In this document: positions 1,481 through 8,759 of the stretch, piece by piece
Layout of the letters: every line of letters starts with the position of its first letter
Position numbering within the stretch: position 1 is the stretch's first letter
NCBI GenBank assembly: GCA_019634005.1
Contig: JAHQWD010000002.1
Span: forward strand, 30,969-94,968
Length of the DNA: 64,000 nucleotides
Source: Candidatus Kaiserbacteria bacterium
GTDB lineage: Bacteria > Patescibacteriota > Minisyncoccia > Phycocordibacterales > UBA918
Direction: 5' to 3'
Made by a program: the position numbers and the translations under genes
The notes under the pieces: model-generated
What the model saw: only the letters and a program-made list of their open reading frames with translations
Databases searched by the model: none
Told to the model about the DNA's origin: nothing

Positions 1481-1861
1481 TTACCAAATAATGAATAATT
1501 CCTCACCTCCTACGTTCTGCTTACGCGCCTCCTCTCCTGTGAGGATCCCCGCAGGTGTAGAGATGATGCGTCGTCCCTGTCCAAACTTCACGGGGAAGAT
1601 GTCCGCAGACTTAACGTAGAGACGTCGTCCTGGCTTTGAAATACGACGTACGTCGCTCACCGCACCGTCCTTCAAGGTAAGTGCAAGTGTCTTCTTTGCC
1701 TTCTTTCCTTGCTTTTCTGCTCCTGCAAGATATCCCTCCTTTACGAGAACATCTGCAATAGCGTGCTTCAGCTTAGAATATGGAAGTTCTACCTCCTCCT
1801 TGCCAACCATGCTGGCGTTCTTGATACGAATGATCAAGTCTGATACTGGGTCGTTTACCAT
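1481..1861 (-). CDS. rpsH: 30S ribosomal protein S8
   Basis: [16 protein letters not shown]... typical S8 N-terminus; spc order. Confidence 0.95.
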
Positions 1862-2040
1862 GATGATTTCTTTACGCCTGGTAAATGCCCCTGCTGTGCC
1901 TCTTCACGGAAGCAGATACGACAGAGATCAAAATCTCGCATGTATCCACGACCACGACCGCACTTAAAGCACCGTCGTACGACGCGGCTTTTGAACTTTG
2001 GTGTACGCTGTGAGCGTACGATGATAGATGTTCGTGCCAT
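1855..2040 (-). CDS. rpsZ: 30S ribosomal protein S14 type Z (zinc-binding)
   Basis: 61 aa with [20 protein letters not shown] zinc-ribbon Cys pairs; overlaps rpsH start by 7 nt. Confidence 0.9.
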
Positions 2041-2220
2041 CTGTATATAGGGCTAACTATTAAAACGTTTGAAAAGTGGTCTCACCTAGAAGATGGTGAC
2101 CGTTCTCTCCTTCCGCGACTCTGGGTAGCGTAAAAAACGCGTTCCCGACGGTTTTCCTTCTGAAAAACGGGTCAGGTGCGTCTGTTTCTACGTAAGAGTG
2201 CGTAAAACGTTATGGGGGCT

Positions 2221-2249
2221 ACTTTACACGGTTTGGGGGTGGGTGTCAA
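2221..2249 (-). promoter_or_regulatory. Sigma70-like promoter TTGACA-17-TAAAGT (minus strand) for rpsZ-rpsH-rplF-rplR-rpsE, followed by ~180-nt leader
   Basis: Minus-strand read cattgacacccacccccaaaccgtgtaaagt; shares TTGACACC extended -35 with other promoters in window. Confidence 0.45.
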
Positions 2250-2304
2250 TGAGAAAAAGGATGTGAACAAAATAATTTTGTGATAGGATAATCGTAAGAT
2301 AGTT

Positions 2305-2634
2305 ATGGAATCAATGGGAATCATCACAAGCAAAAATCTTGCTCATCAGAGAGACAAGGGCGAAGATGTGCGTTTGTCGATACACTGTAATCTGAGCGAG
2401 GATACTGCTTTCAGCATTCTTAGTAAAAAACCAACCTTTATAGAAGGGTTCGCAGGTTTGGTTGACTTCAGGGGAATTGATAGTCAATTTGAATCAACAT
2501 TACTGGAAGATGAAAGCTTAAGCGATACGTTTTTTGTAGGATGCGACTGGAAGATGGTCGGGAATTACTTTAATAAAGCATTCAAAAATTATGAGCAAGA
2601 AAAAGAAGAAGAACAAGGAACTTTCAGCAAGTAA
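2305..2634 (+). CDS. hypothetical protein (island gene A)
   Basis: 109-aa ORF in AT-rich region, no recognisable motifs, no SD; overlaps next ORF by 44 nt. Confidence 0.35.
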   Translation: MESMGIITSKNLAHQRDKGEDVRLSIHCNLSEDTAFSILSKKPTFIEGFAGLVDFRGIDSQFESTLLEDESLSDTFFVGCDWKMVGNYFNKAFKNYEQEKEEEQGTFSK

Positions 2635-3088
2635 GCCTGTCCAAAAAGATTCTGAACCGGAAGTTGAAGTAATTAGAGATCCAAAAGGACAAGTTGTTGG
2701 TTTCAGCGCTAGTAAAGCAGAGTTTTTCTCAGGACCCTTACCTCACCCTGATTTACTTAATAAATATAAAGAAGTAGACCCGAACGTTTTAGAGACAATA
2801 ACACGCATGGCAGAACGTGAACAAACCGAAAGATTGAAACGACAAAATAAGATAGTCTTGTTTGTTGGCGGTAAATCAATATTGGGTCTGATTTTTGCTT
2901 TTTTTGTGGTGTTGGCAGGAATTGCTGCGGGAGTCTATCTGCTTATGCATGATAAATCTGCCGAAGGTTTGTTTGTAGGAATAGCACCTTTTGCAATAGT
3001 TGTTGGTACGTTTATCTTGCAAACCTATTGGGAAAAAGACGAGAAGGAAACAGAGAAGGACAAGGCTGATCTACAAGACAATATATAA
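2591..3088 (+). CDS. DUF2335-like membrane protein
   Basis: FSGPLPHPDLLNKYKEVDP motif followed by MAEREQTERLKRQNK and two TM helices matches my recollection of the DUF2335 family common on phages/ICEs; Lys-rich N-terminus. Confidence 0.55.
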   Translation: MSKKKKKNKELSASKPVQKDSEPEVEVIRDPKGQVVGFSASKAEFFSGPLPHPDLLNKYKEVDPNVLETITRMAEREQTERLKRQNKIVLFVGGKSILGLIFAFFVVLAGIAAGVYLLMHDKSAEGLFVGIAPFAIVVGTFILQTYWEKDEKETEKDKADLQDNI

Positions 3089-3096
3089 ACTATTCC

Positions 3097-3318
3097 CTAA
3101 TGAAGACTTCTATCAACGTACTCCCTCGCTTTTTGCATACCGTGAACAAGTGCTCTGTCATCTGAAATATTACCCTCAACATTTTCTATGACAGCATGGG
3201 TTCCTTCCCATCCATTTTTAACTTTCCTCATAACTTCCCACCTAATAGCACAATGATTCTTTAAACGGTTGTGAATATTAGAAGTCAGTAGATAATTTTT
3301 ATATATTTCTTCCATCAT
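3097..3318 (-). CDS. hypothetical small protein (island gene C, 73 aa)
   Basis: ORF 38 nt downstream of PIN-like gene on same strand; no motifs recognised. Confidence 0.35.
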   Translation of the reverse strand: MMEEIYKNYLLTSNIHNRLKNHCAIRWEVMRKVKNGWEGTHAVIENVEGNISDDRALVHGMQKAREYVDRSLH

Positions 3319-3356
3319 TGAGTTGTATTATAACCGACTACCATTTCAGATATGTT

Positions 3357-3794
3357 CTATTTAATATCCGATAAGGACTTAATGTCTATATCAGATTTAA
3401 ATTCATTTTTAATTCTTTTGGACAAGCCAACATCTCCAGTGAACACATAAATTGTTTCAGTGGGATCGAAAAGTTGTTCTTTCTTCAAAGCTGCAAATCT
3501 CTCAATCAAAGTATGAACGGAGGCTAAAATTGAGATATCGCCAAAGCCAGTCATGTTGAAAAAAGATCTTCCTCCGTGATTATTTAGCATTTCCTTATAC
3601 TTATTGACATAGATGGGCTCATCAAATTCATCAATGTCCGATAACCTCAGGATATTCTTGGGAAGCTTCTTACCAAAGATAGTTTGGGTCATCTCTACTT
3701 CTTCCACAACATCTGGTGCCATATAGTACTTTTTGGAAGGAGAAATTCCATTCTTAAAAATATATGTAATTCCATTTGAATCAATTAAATTCAT
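3357..3794 (-). CDS. PIN-like domain protein (putative nuclease/toxin; island gene D)
   Basis: 145 aa; N-terminal MNLIDSN (PIN beta1-like Asp), acidic PDVVEEVE, later GDISIL and FTGDVGL Asp positions compatible with a PIN/NYN fold; start ATG overlaps stop of upstream gene (ATGA). Confidence 0.4.
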   Translation of the reverse strand: MNLIDSNGITYIFKNGISPSKKYYMAPDVVEEVEMTQTIFGKKLPKNILRLSDIDEFDEPIYVNKYKEMLNNHGGRSFFNMTGFGDISILASVHTLIERFAALKKEQLFDPTETIYVFTGDVGLSKRIKNEFKSDIDIKSLSDIK

Positions 3795-5050
3795 AGACTT
3801 AGTTCACTTCTATACTTCAGAAAACCTTTTTTCTGTGGCGCTCCCCAGATTAAATGTTGCGCTTGAGTATTCGGCAATGTTCCACCTTTTATGCCCAAGT
3901 TTATTGTCTCAAAAGATTTTAGACCACAAAATTTACTTACAGAAGTTGAAACTTTAGGAGTTCTAGGATGGCCTGTGTTTTTCAATTTTATTGGTTTTGG
4001 CTTGAGACTATCAAATTCTGACGATGATATGACTCCTCTCCTTCTCAGAGTAACCAATAAAGCAGTTGGTGATACCTTGAACTTGTTTGCCAATTCATCT
4101 CGCCTACTCTCTGTGACCTTTGTCCCTCGAATTTTTTCTGTCTCTGAACGCGGTATGAGTAATTCTGAAGTTATTAAGTGAAGTCTTACCTCCTTAATAG
4201 TTGTTCCTGTAATTTTAATTGTAAAATTTGGCTCAAGTATAAATTCATATTGATCTAACCCAATAATCGTTAACAAATAAAACAAGGTGTATATCTGCCT
4301 ACTGGCAACTTCGTCCTGATTAGTTTCTGATGGCAGAAAAATGAAGGGGACATGGTCGTCTTTTATTGCAAAACCACTCGTATTTTTATAAACGCTACTT
4401 GGTACCACTCGTGTGTTCGGGAGAATCTTATGTGCAAGTGTTCCTTGCGAAACATTTATATTTTTGTTTCCCACCTTTTTTATTAGTGCTTCCAGAGTAG
4501 CTTCCTTCCCCCTATCCCGCCACATCCAGTCTCTATCAATGTCAAAATGGTCTAAGATTTTATCTGCAGCAGATTTTATACTTTCATACTTCAAAGACCC
4601 GCAAAAACTATTTGATGGAAAGATTCCTGTACTTACAAGATAATTTTGCTGACGAATCAACCGATCCACAATGCGTTTCGGAGTGATCTTTCCTTGTCCT
4701 TTCCTCTTGGCAACAATTTTCTTTGAGACCTTATGCTGCCTTTGAGTCTCAATATGATTAATTGTCTGGTTTAGGTTTGTCGTGCTAAGAAAGAACATCT
4801 GCCAAGGAATGAGTATTTTTTCGCTTTCTTCTTTCAGATTTTTGAATGTAATAGAACCAGCAGAAAATGCCTGCTGAAATATTTTTCTGTTTATAAGTTT
4901 TTCTTCGGGATAAAGGTTGAGAATTCTTTTAATAACAGAGTCATCTATCTCTACCGAATTCTGCCCATTTACTGACACCCACATACTTAATAGGATATTT
5001 TTGAGTTCTTTCGGACATAGTGCGCAACATATAGAGAAAGTAGCACACAA
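3791..5050 (-). CDS. hypothetical 419-aa protein with C-terminal helix-turn-helix-like segment (island gene E)
   Basis: Long ORF; RRDELANKFKVSPTALLVTLRRRGVIS resembles an HTH; no HExxH, P-loop or recombinase motifs seen. Track start is TTG at 5050 (SD-like AAAGGA 5 nt upstream); ATG at 4984 (MWVSVNGQ) alternative. Confidence 0.5.
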   Translation of the reverse strand: MCATFSICCALCPKELKNILLSMWVSVNGQNSVEIDDSVIKRILNLYPEEKLINRKIFQQAFSAGSITFKNLKEESEKILIPWQMFFLSTTNLNQTINHIETQRQHKVSKKIVAKRKGQGKITPKRIVDRLIRQQNYLVSTGIFPSNSFCGSLKYESIKSAADKILDHFDIDRDWMWRDRGKEATLEALIKKVGNKNINVSQGTLAHKILPNTRVVPSSVYKNTSGFAIKDDHVPFIFLPSETNQDEVASRQIYTLFYLLTIIGLDQYEFILEPNFTIKITGTTIKEVRLHLITSELLIPRSETEKIRGTKVTESRRDELANKFKVSPTALLVTLRRRGVISSSEFDSLKPKPIKLKNTGHPRTPKVSTSVSKFCGLKSFETINLGIKGGTLPNTQAQHLIWGAPQKKGFLKYRSELSL

Positions 5051-5073
5051 AACATCCTTTTTCTAGGAGAGAA

Positions 5074-5105
5074 TTGACAATACACTTATATATGGTATCA
5101 TTCAA
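5074..5105. promoter_or_regulatory. Back-to-back divergent promoters: plus TTGACA(5074-5079)-16-TATCAT(5096-5101) for membrane gene; minus TTGAAT(5105-5100)-17-TATTGT(5082-5077) for island operon E-D-C
   Basis: Read directly: gaattgacaatacacttatatatggtatcattcaa; plus -35 overlaps minus -10. Confidence 0.4.
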
Positions 5106-5133
5106 CTTAGCATTTCCAATAGGGAGAAGACCG

Positions 5134-5481
5134 ATGGAAAATCAAAGTGCTGTTCTCTACCAAGATAAACCCTGGCTGAAGATTCTGGCATTCATTGTCA
5201 TCTGGATGATTCTTGCTGGCGAGGTTTGGGCGTATCTGGAACTTTTGCGCACCGTCAATGACCACAAGCGGAGCGCCTTCGGCGCACATGTTCCCATCCC
5301 CGACGGCGTTGGGATCATGTATATGACCATGCTGTTCTCAGTAGGGCCCGTTGGCCCCTTTCTGATACAGCTCGTCGGAAGCATGTTCGGCCAAATCATC
5401 ATCGCCGCTGTTCTTCTGCTCGGAGCAGGGGGCAATTGGCTGCTCTACAGTATCCTCGAGAATTTCGGATACTTCACCTAA
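5134..5481 (+). CDS. hypothetical polytopic membrane protein (115 aa, higher GC)
   Basis: ATG at 5134 preceded by SD AGGGAGAAG; hydrophobic ILAFIVIWMILAGEVWAYL and IIIAAVLLLGAGGNWLLY; track ORF 5074 uses TTG upstream. Confidence 0.55.
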   Translation: MENQSAVLYQDKPWLKILAFIVIWMILAGEVWAYLELLRTVNDHKRSAFGAHVPIPDGVGIMYMTMLFSVGPVGPFLIQLVGSMFGQIIIAAVLLLGAGGNWLLYSILENFGYFT

Positions 5482-5506
5482 GGGATCCCGAGAACGACCC
5501 GACCAA

Positions 5507-5576
5507 CCGCCGAACACACCCGTTCGGCGGTTTAACTTTACTCTTCCACCAAAAAACCACCCTCCCGGGTGGTTTT
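5507..5576. terminator. Two stem-loops; second (5553-5576, aaaaccaccc-tccc-gggtggtttt) is a bidirectional rho-independent terminator between membrane gene (+) and rplE (-)
   Basis: ccgccgaacacacccgttcggcgg + tttaacttta, then aaaaaaccaccctcccgggtggttttt; T/A runs both sides. Confidence 0.6.
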
Positions 5577-5580
5577 TCAT

Positions 5581-6117
5581 CTACTCAGCCTCAACCTTCT
5601 GAAGCGGAAGTCCGACATGCCGAAGCAATGCCTCTGCCTCTTCTTTGGTTTTCGCAGTAGTCACGAGTGTGATAGCAAATCCAAACACATCTCGAATCTC
5701 TTCATCTGAAGTCTCAGGGAAGATCGTGTGCTCCTTGATTCCCAAGGTGTAGTTCCCCATCTCATCGATGGCGGTCACCTTAAGACCACGGAAGTCACGG
5801 GTGTTTGGAAGCGCAACGTGAATCAACTTATCGAGGAAGTCATTCATACGCTCCCCACGAAGGGTTACCTGATATCCAATGATATCTCCCTCACGAAGCT
5901 TAAATGTCGCAATAGACTGCTTCGCAGGACGTGGAGATGGCTTCTGTCCGGTAATCTTCGCAAGACGATCTTGCATAAGCTCGATCTTCTTCTTGTCGTC
6001 GATCTTTCCCGTACCAGTTGATACCACCACCTTCGTGATGCGAGGTGCCTGCATCACATTCTTGTAAGAGAATGTGCCTTTCAGTGCCTCAAATACAGAT
6101 TGTAGTTTTTCTTTCAT
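5581..6117 (-). CDS. rplE: 50S ribosomal protein L5
   Basis: MKEKLQSVFEALKGTFSYKNVMQAPRITKVVVSTGTG... typical L5. Confidence 0.95.
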   Translation of the reverse strand: MKEKLQSVFEALKGTFSYKNVMQAPRITKVVVSTGTGKIDDKKKIELMQDRLAKITGQKPSPRPAKQSIATFKLREGDIIGYQVTLRGERMNDFLDKLIHVALPNTRDFRGLKVTAIDEMGNYTLGIKEHTIFPETSDEEIRDVFGFAITLVTTAKTKEEAEALLRHVGLPLQKVEAE

Positions 6118-6125
6118 AATACGTT

Positions 6126-6425
6126 CTATATCTTAGTACCCTTTGGACGAGTAACACGAACTTTCTTGCCGTCCACCACATCGTATCCCACACGTGCTGG
6201 CTTCTTACCATCAAGGATCGCAACGTTAGAGACGTGGATTGGCATAGGCTTCTCCACAATCTGTCCCGTAGATCCACGACGACGTGCCTTCTGGTGGCGA
6301 ACCGCAACGTTCACCCCATCAACGATGACCTTATCCGCAGAAGAGATAACCTCAAGGACTTCTCCGTCCTTTCCTTTATCCTTTCCGGAAATCACCATTA
6401 CTTTGTCTCCTTTGTGTATTTTCAT
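6126..6425 (-). CDS. rplX: 50S ribosomal protein L24
   Basis: MKIHKGDKVMVISGKDKGKDGEVLEV... KOW motif; start trimmed to ATG at 6425 (track ORF extends to 6515 over rplN). Confidence 0.92.
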   Translation of the reverse strand: MKIHKGDKVMVISGKDKGKDGEVLEVISSADKVIVDGVNVAVRHQKARRRGSTGQIVEKPMPIHVSNVAILDGKKPARVGYDVVDGKKVRVTRPKGTKI

Positions 6426-8435: not shown

Positions 8436-8759
8436 TTATCCGAGCTCCACGGTGATGTGGCTACTGCGGCGGTTAATAGGTGATGCAGATCCACGAGCGC
8501 GCGGCATATACTTTCGCATAACCGTACCCTTGTCGACTGCTACCTTAGTGATTTTTAGTGATTCGACCTCCTTCCCTGCCTGCTTTGCATTTGCTGCAGC
8601 AGAACGGATAACCTTTGCAAACGGCTCTGCAGCACGCTTCTCCACAAACTGAAGCGTATGAAGTGCCTCGTTCACCTTCTTCCCGCGTACAAGGTCTGCC
8701 AAGAGGCGTACCTTACGTGGAGACTGGCGATAATTTTTGAGTACTGCTTTCATAAACAA
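8436..8759 (-). CDS. rplV: 50S ribosomal protein L22
   Basis: MFMKAVLKNYRQSPRKVRLLADLVRGKKVNEALHTLQF typical L22. Confidence 0.93.
   Translation of the reverse strand: MFMKAVLKNYRQSPRKVRLLADLVRGKKVNEALHTLQFVEKRAAEPFAKVIRSAAANAKQAGKEVESLKITKVAVDKGTVMRKYMPRARGSASPINRRSSHITVELG

Follow-up and report, generated by a model that had tools for sequence, protein, structure and literature searches.

Pairs of an HTH-ImmA/IrrE gene (DUF955/COG2856, Peptidase_M78) and a DUF4411/PIN-like gene have been predicted to be three-component toxin-antitoxin (TA) modules (Matelska et al. 2017, PMC5499597). In the phage-defence system RosmerTA, the ImmA domain has been validated as a hub antitoxin (RmrA), and it is linked to PIN-like toxins (PMC10440598; bioRxiv 10.1101/2022.05.11.491447). 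RosmerTA (RmrT/RmrA; Millman et al. 2022; Ernits et al. 2023, PMC10440598) consists of two genes with an ImmA-type antitoxin, often carrying an N-terminal HTH, and these antitoxins are paired with swappable toxins, PIN-like domains included. In the CapH/CapP, IrrE/DdrO and ImmR/ImmA switches, an active HExxH metalloprotease cuts a separate Xre-type repressor. VapBC pairs carry a PIN-fold toxin with four acidic residues, and the overlapping antitoxin gene comes first. VapB antitoxins are small proteins in which a DNA-binding domain is joined to a tail that binds the toxin. SanaTA was considered as a further comparator and set aside, because its toxin is a nucleotidyltransferase according to the literature and not DUF4411.

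The window analysed here is a 64 kb stretch of a Candidatus Kaiserbacteria contig (JAHQWD010000002.1). A sequence-only reading of this DNA had proposed a three-gene toxin-immunity or defence module (genes E, D and C) of undescribed architecture, located in an AT-rich island inside the ribosomal operon. The AT-rich block was confirmed (GC 0.34-0.39 across ~2250-5070; flanks 0.47-0.53) and lies between rpsN (S14, 1855-2040) and rplE (L5, 5581-6117). All three ORFs were found on the minus strand at the positions given in that reading: C (73 aa, from the ORF listing) at 3097-3318, D (145 aa) at 3357-3794 and E at 3791-5050. The ORF of E stands, but its TTG start at 5050 (419 aa) does not. Its homologues (about 120) are ~398 aa long and the NCBI annotation (KTR10_00455) gives 397 aa; the start was therefore placed at ATG 4984, and gene E (397 aa) spans 3791-4984 on the minus strand. 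An Rfam scan of window positions 1500-6200 gave zero matches. A promoter/terminator scan returned counts near the shuffled expectation and was therefore uninformative.

The stop codon of E and the start codon of D overlap in ATGA (3791-3794, minus strand, read from the sequence), from which translational coupling had been proposed. The identical 4-bp overlap was present in 16/16 other loci with an intact pair; it is thus not due to chance and supports the proposed coupling. E and D occurred together in all 16 informative loci, and the pairwise distances of the two proteins were correlated (r = 0.88). At one locus (L016, JAWKSP010000001.1) E is apparently frameshifted and D is intact; unless the frameshift is an assembly error, that genome would tolerate D without E.

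Gene D is a predicted PIN-fold nuclease and the predicted toxin of the pair. Its AF2 model (pLDDT 90) has VapC proteins as best structural matches, in agreement with the PIN-like nuclease assignment made from the sequence. The acidic residues singled out at that stage proved to be shared by the family: 30 of 30 D family sequences have D5, E32, D86 and D121, at the canonical PIN positions (where strand 1 ends, in helix 2, where the helix at 84 begins, and after strand 115-118). D accordingly has both hallmarks of the PIN superfamily, the PIN fold (Rossmann-like alpha/beta/alpha) and four conserved acidic residues. Searches against Pfam, NCBIfam and PADLOC gave 0 matches for the window copy, the 30 family members and the 10 most distant representatives. 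The Pfam PIN model PF01850 did not match D, and the PF14367 (DUF4411) profile matched 0/30 family members and 0/10 distant representatives at E <= 1. When the D alignment (A2) was compared by hhalign with an alignment of three DUF4411 sequences, 14 columns were matched at a probability of 1.1%; against single sequences the probability was about 1%. The most distant D representatives, used as a bridge to the Pfam models for DUF4411 and PIN, gave no hits. Searches of PDB sequences with the E and D family profiles returned nothing meaningful. The D family comprises 97 representatives among 1.84 billion proteins and is distributed patchily across phyla. Judged from these profile searches, D defines a small family of PIN-fold proteins that lacks a Pfam model.

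Gene E is the predicted antitoxin/sensor. The sequence-only reading had found nothing in it beyond an HTH-like stretch, a description that does not hold. The AF2 model (pLDDT 87) shows the M78/ImmA-IrrE fold that characterises the peptidase core, with CapP and IrrE as best structural matches, and hhalign showed remote homology of E, over nearly its whole length, to canonical HTH-ImmA/IrrE proteins (97%, E 8e-11, 306 columns, E residues 45-379 for one; 95%, E 4e-8 for a second). E also matched phrog_2439 (E 3.5e-9). The HTH-like stretch itself (residues ~292-318) turned out to be the C-terminal helical portion of the Peptidase_M78 match; by analogy, its counterpart in IrrE is the helical/HTH region behind the peptidase core (PMC5499597). 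The first ~44 residues of E were not aligned by hhalign with the HTH helices of the canonical partners; whether E binds DNA and autoregulates is therefore uncertain. The window copy scored 15.9 bits against Peptidase_M78 (PF06114), below the gathering cut-off of 22, and weak matches at E <= 1 were obtained for 10/33 family members (best 4.3e-4). In PADLOC neither E nor D reached any model; the RmrA profiles did not match window E, and the sole match was capP (E 0.041).

The absence of HExxH from E, which had been noted from the window copy, extends to the family. The motif was found in the M78-like region of 0/120 members; a single member carries it at residue 70, outside that region. In the hhalign alignments, Y236-L237 of E lie under the His-Glu of HELAH/HEFIH and the position of the second His is a deletion. 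No His column of the family is more than 82% conserved, and none lies within the motif region. Because the zinc-binding HExxH is lost, E cannot work as a zinc protease of the M78 type. These alignments point to E as a degenerate, zinc-site-less relative of the ImmA/IrrE "Rosmer-type" or RmrA-type antitoxins. With E as query, no match was obtained among IMG/VR viral contigs or by tblastn of GenBank phages.

The closest described counterpart is the ImmA/IrrE+DUF4411 pair. A mismatch with these pairs had been claimed on account of the missing HExxH, and at the level of homology this was wrong: all five plasmid relatives of E that could be detected are ImmA/IrrE genes. The three that were inspected lie directly upstream of a DUF4411 gene; the architecture is therefore already described (PMC5499597, PMC10440598) and the proposal of an undescribed one was dropped. 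Canonical comparators were drawn from the plasmid tblastn search (Lactobacillus johnsonii p9785L FI9785_RS08640/45; Pseudosulfitobacter LOE16_RS22580/75) and scored 1e-12 to 6e-18 against RmrA models and 4e-21 to 7e-30 against PF14367. As in E-D, an ImmA/IrrE-fold protein of ~370-400 aa is encoded upstream of a PIN-fold protein of ~145-170 aa, the PIN gene lying directly downstream of the ImmA/IrrE-type gene (in the window and 16 loci for E-D), and one comparator has the identical 4-bp overlap. The L. johnsonii partner was aligned nearly end to end with the E profile. Both kinds of pair are found on mobile DNA near defence genes such as AbiH, the Swt1 HEPN protein and dcm. The canonical partners differ from E in keeping HExxH (HEFIH, HELAH) and in their strong Peptidase_M78 and RmrA scores, whereas the E family lacks the motif and stays below threshold; D differs from DUF4411 in having no PF14367 match and in the 1% hhalign value. 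Two things are new here: E has lost its zinc site, and the PIN family of D has no Pfam model.

E-D resembles RosmerTA in having two genes and an ImmA-type antitoxin, and the connection of E to the RmrA models is transitive, through canonical ImmA/IrrE proteins (hhalign E 8e-11). E itself has neither an RmrA model match nor the zinc site, and the RosmerTA toxins that were assayed are of unknown function or membrane-depolarising and not PIN nucleases. The distinction from small-antitoxin VapBC pairs drawn in the sequence-only reading was upheld: gene order, overlap and the PIN fold with four acidic residues are shared, whereas E is a 397 aa protein of M78 fold and D has no PF01850 match.

The neighbours of the pair at other loci include large serine recombinases, other restriction-modification (R-M) systems, SMODS/DUF6602 and AIPR. 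At one locus the pair is embedded in a type I R-M operon (hsdM-hsdS-[E-D]-x-hsdR), and at another it lies within a satellite-like integrase-AlpA-VapE element. Some loci have ordinary neighbours (RHS, MurG and GltX in L024). From its occurrence beside recombinases, R-M systems and SMODS and in a satellite-like element, the pair is concluded to be mobile, and the contexts support the suspected role in toxin immunity or defence, the pair resembling such a module borne on mobile DNA. Canonical M78 paralogues were not found in the E-D loci that were fetched.

Taken with the folds and the gene order, E and D probably constitute a horizontally mobile two-gene module, of TA or abortive-infection type, that belongs to the ImmA/IrrE-antitoxin ('Rosmer-like') class. 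D would be a metal-dependent PIN nuclease, most likely cutting RNA (tRNA or rRNA) like VapC-type toxins. E, apparently descended from HTH-ImmA/IrrE metallopeptidase antitoxins that lost HExxH, would be translated first, with the stoichiometry presumably fixed by the ATGA overlap, and would most likely keep D inactive through direct binding. Degradation or titration of E, or a conformational switch in it, would free D; a phage infection or the element being lost could be the trigger. Several observations weigh against this reading: neither protein reaches a PADLOC model, the N-terminus of E is not aligned with the canonical HTH, E is apparently frameshifted beside an intact D in L016, E has no match in the viral and phage sequences searched, and the neighbours at some loci are ordinary genes.

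The same contexts bear on a rather unlikely alternative, in which the pair serves addiction (post-segregational killing), stabilising the mobile DNA or slot cargo that carries it, and has no anti-phage role. The frequent proximity to recombinases and integrases, also inside integrative elements, would fit this, as would the classic type II TA layout with the antitoxin first and a 4-bp overlap, and the location of the window copy in a recombination-prone slot with orphan cargo. Against it, several loci lie amid defence genes (the type I R-M operon; SMODS/DUF6602) with no obvious mobility gene within the ~12-13 kb inspected, and relatives in the RosmerTA antitoxin class have measured anti-phage activity (PMC10440598). 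Addiction and defence roles of the pair are mutually compatible.

A non-coding segment upstream of E (4985-5051, minus strand) is a candidate promoter/operator or leader. The loci nearest to the window copy conserve it: an alignment (A3) of the window with loci L001, L007, L011, L016, L019 and L024 revealed a shared core ...TATGCTA...GTGCTATGACGAAnAAACGCCAAGTAC, from which the window copy has diverged. Within the proposed TA module this conserved segment suggests that the operon may be autoregulated. It would also suit a different role, in which E is a regulator of mobile elements (an ImmA-like anti-repressor or transcription factor), D processes nucleic acid of the element and the two are no TA pair. 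That the PHROG matched by E is annotated 'transcriptional regulator', and that ImmA of ICEBs1 and IrrE regulate through Xre-type repressors (PMC5499597, PMC10440598), can be cited in its favour. CapP and IrrE of the protease-repressor switches are the best structural matches of E, but the catalytic HExxH required of an anti-repressor protease is missing from E, and neither a consistently adjacent ImmR/Xre-type repressor gene nor a single accompanying element type was found at the loci inspected. The island in the window is also devoid of recombinase and replication genes (ORF listing, Pfam search). A regulatory role of this kind is considered improbable, and the TA reading is retained.

A perfect 13-nt inverted repeat, AGAAAAAGGATGT, has its left arm at 2252-2264 (plus strand), at the edge of the AT-rich block and ~40 nt upstream of ORF A109, and its right arm at 5052-5064 (minus strand), ~68 nt upstream of the E start codon. 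No further copy occurs in the 64 kb; each edge of the block carries one. As a general feature of the module the repeat was rejected, since it is missing upstream of E elsewhere. Consistent bracketing repeats around the pair were not found at other loci, and no target-site duplication is visible.

The sequence-only reading had pointed out that the module sits inside the ribosomal operon; comparison with relatives showed that this position is not specific to it. In a related locus (L026) L5 is 97% identical and the flanks share 89-93% nucleotide identity with the window; synteny is broken at window position 5509 and restored at 2250. The lineage-variable segment thus delimited (2251-5508) holds ORFs A109, B165, C, D, E and M135 in the window and PadR+PspC in L026. 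The E-D pair is absent from this locus and from all 80 related L5 loci, which were collected by a metagenome scan, and the cargo in the L5-S14 slot is unrelated from relative to relative. A lookup of the exact L5 sequence for strain variants found nothing on record. The ribosomal-operon position is incidental and reflects an insertion-tolerant slot across the lineage.

This distribution effectively refutes a housekeeping rRNA-processing role for D, in which D would be an rRNA-maturing PIN nuclease like Nob1 or Fcf1/Utp24 and E its cofactor. Apart from the missing pair and the unrelated slot cargo in relatives, such a role, to which we attach a very low probability, is contradicted by the small number (97) and patchy cross-phylum distribution of D representatives, by the foreign-looking AT-rich block and by the defence and mobile contexts of the pair elsewhere.

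The remaining ORFs of the island are not part of the module. The search for an E-D-C trio in other genomes found C absent from 18/18 E-D loci (tblastn); its sole match among 5.8 billion protein clusters was itself, and profile searches gave no confident family match. The proposed three-gene module is thus reduced to the pair, and C is an orphan ORF outside it, possibly not a genuine gene. ORF B165 (2591-3088, plus strand) encodes a membrane protein with DUF2335 that belongs to a phage 'moron' family (Pfam DUF2335 E 2.4e-6; phrog_3996 E 7.9e-27). It is convergent with E, D and C. B165 is absent from other E-D loci and is co-resident cargo outside the module; C and the remaining island ORFs are unrelated cargo.

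We tentatively propose that the E family could be a pseudo-enzyme offshoot of RmrA/ImmA that has lost the protease site and a recognisable HTH and controls an unclassified PIN family purely by protein-protein sensing. If true, this would be non-proteolytic control within the Rosmer-like class, mainly in Patescibacteria (CPR). Patescibacteria are episymbionts with tiny genomes, and we know of no experimentally characterised defence system from them. The ImmA/Rosmer hub gains a clear case of family-wide loss of the protease motif, which suggests that some members of the class may neutralise toxins without proteolysis. The E and D families, neither of which is recognised by current tools, can be added to TA and defence detection models and would improve the annotation of Patescibacteria. 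In this Kaiserbacteria-like lineage, insertions recur at the L5-S14 junction, which is relevant to the use of ribosomal-operon synteny in CPR genomes.

The three minus-strand open reading frames proposed by the sequence-only reading were present: ORF C (73 aa, 3097-3318), gene D (3357-3794), encoding a PIN-fold protein, and gene E (3791-5050 if read from a TTG), encoding its large ImmA/IrrE-like partner. The ATG at 4984 was taken as the start of E, because its approximately 120 homologues are about 398 aa long and the NCBI annotation (KTR10_00455, Candidatus Kaiserbacteria bacterium) has 397 aa. The overlap of the E stop with the D start in an ATGA was confirmed, as was the AT-rich island around the three frames (GC 0.34-0.39 vs about 0.5 in the flanks), which is located between rpsN (S14) and rplE (L5).

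For comparison of this slot (2041-5580), 80 metagenomic loci with related L5 genes were used. The L5-S14 gap was between 110 bp and 4.6 kb long, except in six loci that had no S14 within 6 kb. In the closest relative, L026 (L5 97% identical, flanks 89-93% nucleotide identity), homology to the window stopped at 5509 and restarted at 2250, and the slot contained PadR and PspC genes. Other cargo comprised TPM, Fib_succ_major/LamG, an IS605 OrfB-like protein, Band 7, Fic and glycosyltransferases. A hairpin (CCACCC-GGGA-GGGTGG, approximately 5551-5577, minus strand), lying between runs of A and T directly after rplE, could terminate transcription in both directions, and a promoter-like site (TTGACA-17-TAAAGT, 2221-2249, minus strand) precedes rpsN. 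As both are within sequence that is also conserved in L026, they suggest that the ribosomal operon is transcriptionally split at the L5-S14 junction across the lineage. Together with the variable gaps and cargo, this identifies the junction as a hypervariable, insertion-tolerant slot in this Kaiserbacteria-like lineage. E, D or C was carried by none of the 80 loci, and the position within the ribosomal operon is incidental.

A perfect 13-nt inverted repeat, AGAAAAAGGATGT, was located exactly at both edges of the AT-rich block (2252-2264, plus; 5052-5064, minus), with only these two copies in the 64-kb window. Two gene sets face inward, each with one arm 40-70 nt upstream of it, and the left arm begins 2 nt inward of the point at which synteny with L026 breaks. 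The repeat could have belonged to an inserted cassette, as its terminal repeat, or could act as a shared operator; no target-site duplication was found at it, and the other E-D loci had no equivalent. Convergent with E-D-C, and with its stop 8 bp from that of C, is ORF B165 (2591-3088, plus), a DUF2335 membrane protein matching phage PHROG 3996 ('moron, auxiliary metabolic gene and host takeover', E 8e-27). ORF M135 (5074-5481, plus), a predicted membrane protein of normal GC, lies within the variable segment and outside the block bounded by the repeat. A good AGGAG site precedes its TTG start, and an internal ATG near 5134 is the likelier start. Neither M135 nor ORF A109 of the same segment yielded matches, and M135 had no homologue in any fetched locus.

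By tblastn, D followed E in all 16 loci extending far enough, and the ATGA overlap recurred in 16/16 other loci in which both genes are intact. Pairwise divergences of E and D were correlated (r = 0.88 over 136 pairs). C was absent from every other E-D locus by tblastn and had no homologue besides itself in 5.8 billion clusters; it is outside the module, which consists of two genes instead of the three supposed. The other island ORFs were in none of the E-D loci (tblastn). In one locus (L016 8001-9195; JAWKSP010000001.1, Candidatus Paceibacterota ABC1.92) the E orthologue was split into two frames near 8503-8522 upstream of an intact D orthologue, which is explained either by an assembly error or by pseudogenisation of the antitoxin beside a toxin that has stayed intact. 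A non-coding segment of about 60 nt upstream of E was conserved among the closest loci (L001, L007, L011, L016, L019, L024) and recognisable in the window at 4985-5051 (minus; core ...TTTACtTATGCTAnTTTT...GTGCTATGACGAAnAAACGCCAAGTAC) and may act as a promoter/operator or a leader.

Neighbourhoods of the pair varied by locus. It was found next to large serine recombinases (L001, L019), with SMODS, DUF6602, Hypoth_Ymh, RadC and TrwB genes (L002), with restriction-modification genes and recombinases (L020/L021), in an integrase-AlpA-VapE satellite-like element (L022/L023) and downstream of an RHS protein (L024/L025). In L003-L005 (JGI Ga0172379_10000087 and Logan contigs) it lies inside a type I restriction-modification operon, between hsdS, whose end overlaps the E start by 4 bp, and a 290-aa ORF followed by hsdR. 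Hosts were mostly Patescibacteria, with further copies on contigs binned as Methylophilus, Flavobacteriaceae, Rhizomicrobium and FCPU426; no relative of E was detected in viral contigs or GenBank phages. A housekeeping role of D/E in rRNA processing is effectively refuted by this distribution.

E matched phrog_2439 'transcriptional regulator' (E 3.5e-9, residues 50-329). Peptidase_M78 matches in its family were weak (10/33 members, best E 4e-4), and three members already carried the JGI label 'Zn-dependent peptidase ImmA'. A plasmid tblastn with E gave five weak matches, all on genes annotated as ImmA/IrrE family metallo-endopeptidase. The three inspected were each directly upstream of a gene scoring 4e-21 to 7e-30 on DUF4411, in Pseudosulfitobacter with the same 4-bp overlap as E-D, and their products matched PADLOC models of RmrA, the RosmerTA antitoxin, nearly full length (1e-12 to 6e-18). 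The E family profile aligned with the L. johnsonii ImmA/IrrE protein over 306 columns (E residues 45-379, 97% probability, E 8e-11) and with that of Pseudosulfitobacter over 170 columns (95% probability, E 4e-8). E is therefore homologous to the HTH-ImmA/IrrE partners of DUF4411, distantly but over nearly its full length. The first approximately 44 residues, a beta-hairpin and two helices in the predicted structure, gave no alignment to the Xre-type helices in these canonical proteins. The stretch previously read as HTH-like (residues ~292-318) proved to belong to the Peptidase_M78 match, of which it is the helical C-terminal part; by analogy, it would correspond to the helical/HTH region that comes after the peptidase core in IrrE (PMC5499597).

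In both alignments, 'RQIYTLFY-LL' of E was placed under 'RQIFTLFHELAH' and 'GQIFTLIHEFIH', with Tyr236-Leu237 in place of His-Glu and the second His within a deletion. Across 120 family members no conserved histidine column was found in the motif region, and HExxH occurred in one only, at residue 70, outside the M78-like domain. With HExxH lost across the family, zinc binding in the M78 manner would not be possible, and E is best read, from its sequence, as a pseudo-peptidase.

D has acidic residues at the usual PIN active-site positions (end of strand 1, helix 2, start of the helix from residue 84, and directly after strand 115-118). The window copy, 30 family members and the 10 most distant representatives were all without a Pfam, NCBIfam or PADLOC match, and no PDB sequence match was found. 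When 1.84 billion representatives were searched exhaustively with the family profile, only 97 proteins were recovered, and at the sequence level the family is isolated. D is a predicted nuclease with a PIN fold, in a small family of its own. Membership in DUF4411 was rejected by every test run: besides the missing Pfam match, only the N-terminal 'DTN' strand aligned when profiles were compared with three genuine DUF4411 proteins (1% probability).

The layout of E-D, with a large ImmA-type protein first, a small toxin second and translational coupling, agrees with HTH-DUF955 + PIN-like modules that had been predicted (PMC5499597). A second match for this layout is the ImmA 'hub antitoxin' zone of the NetFlax network, among whose members are PIN-like partners and RosmerTA defence systems that have been verified by experiment (PMC10440598; bioRxiv 10.1101/2022.05.11.491447). 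It is somewhat more likely than not that D is a PIN nuclease toxin and that E restrains it. As the catalytic motif is missing from E, the most likely means of control would be direct binding, as opposed to proteolytic cleavage of a repressor. Competing readings are an addiction role, with the same biochemistry, and a role as element regulator. The earlier interpretation was supported in part; besides the third gene, its suggestion of an undescribed architecture was not upheld, as E-D is a degenerate variant of the known ImmA/IrrE + PIN-like layout. The pair, in which D would be controlled by a pseudo-peptidase, is a new, degenerate form of an already known type.
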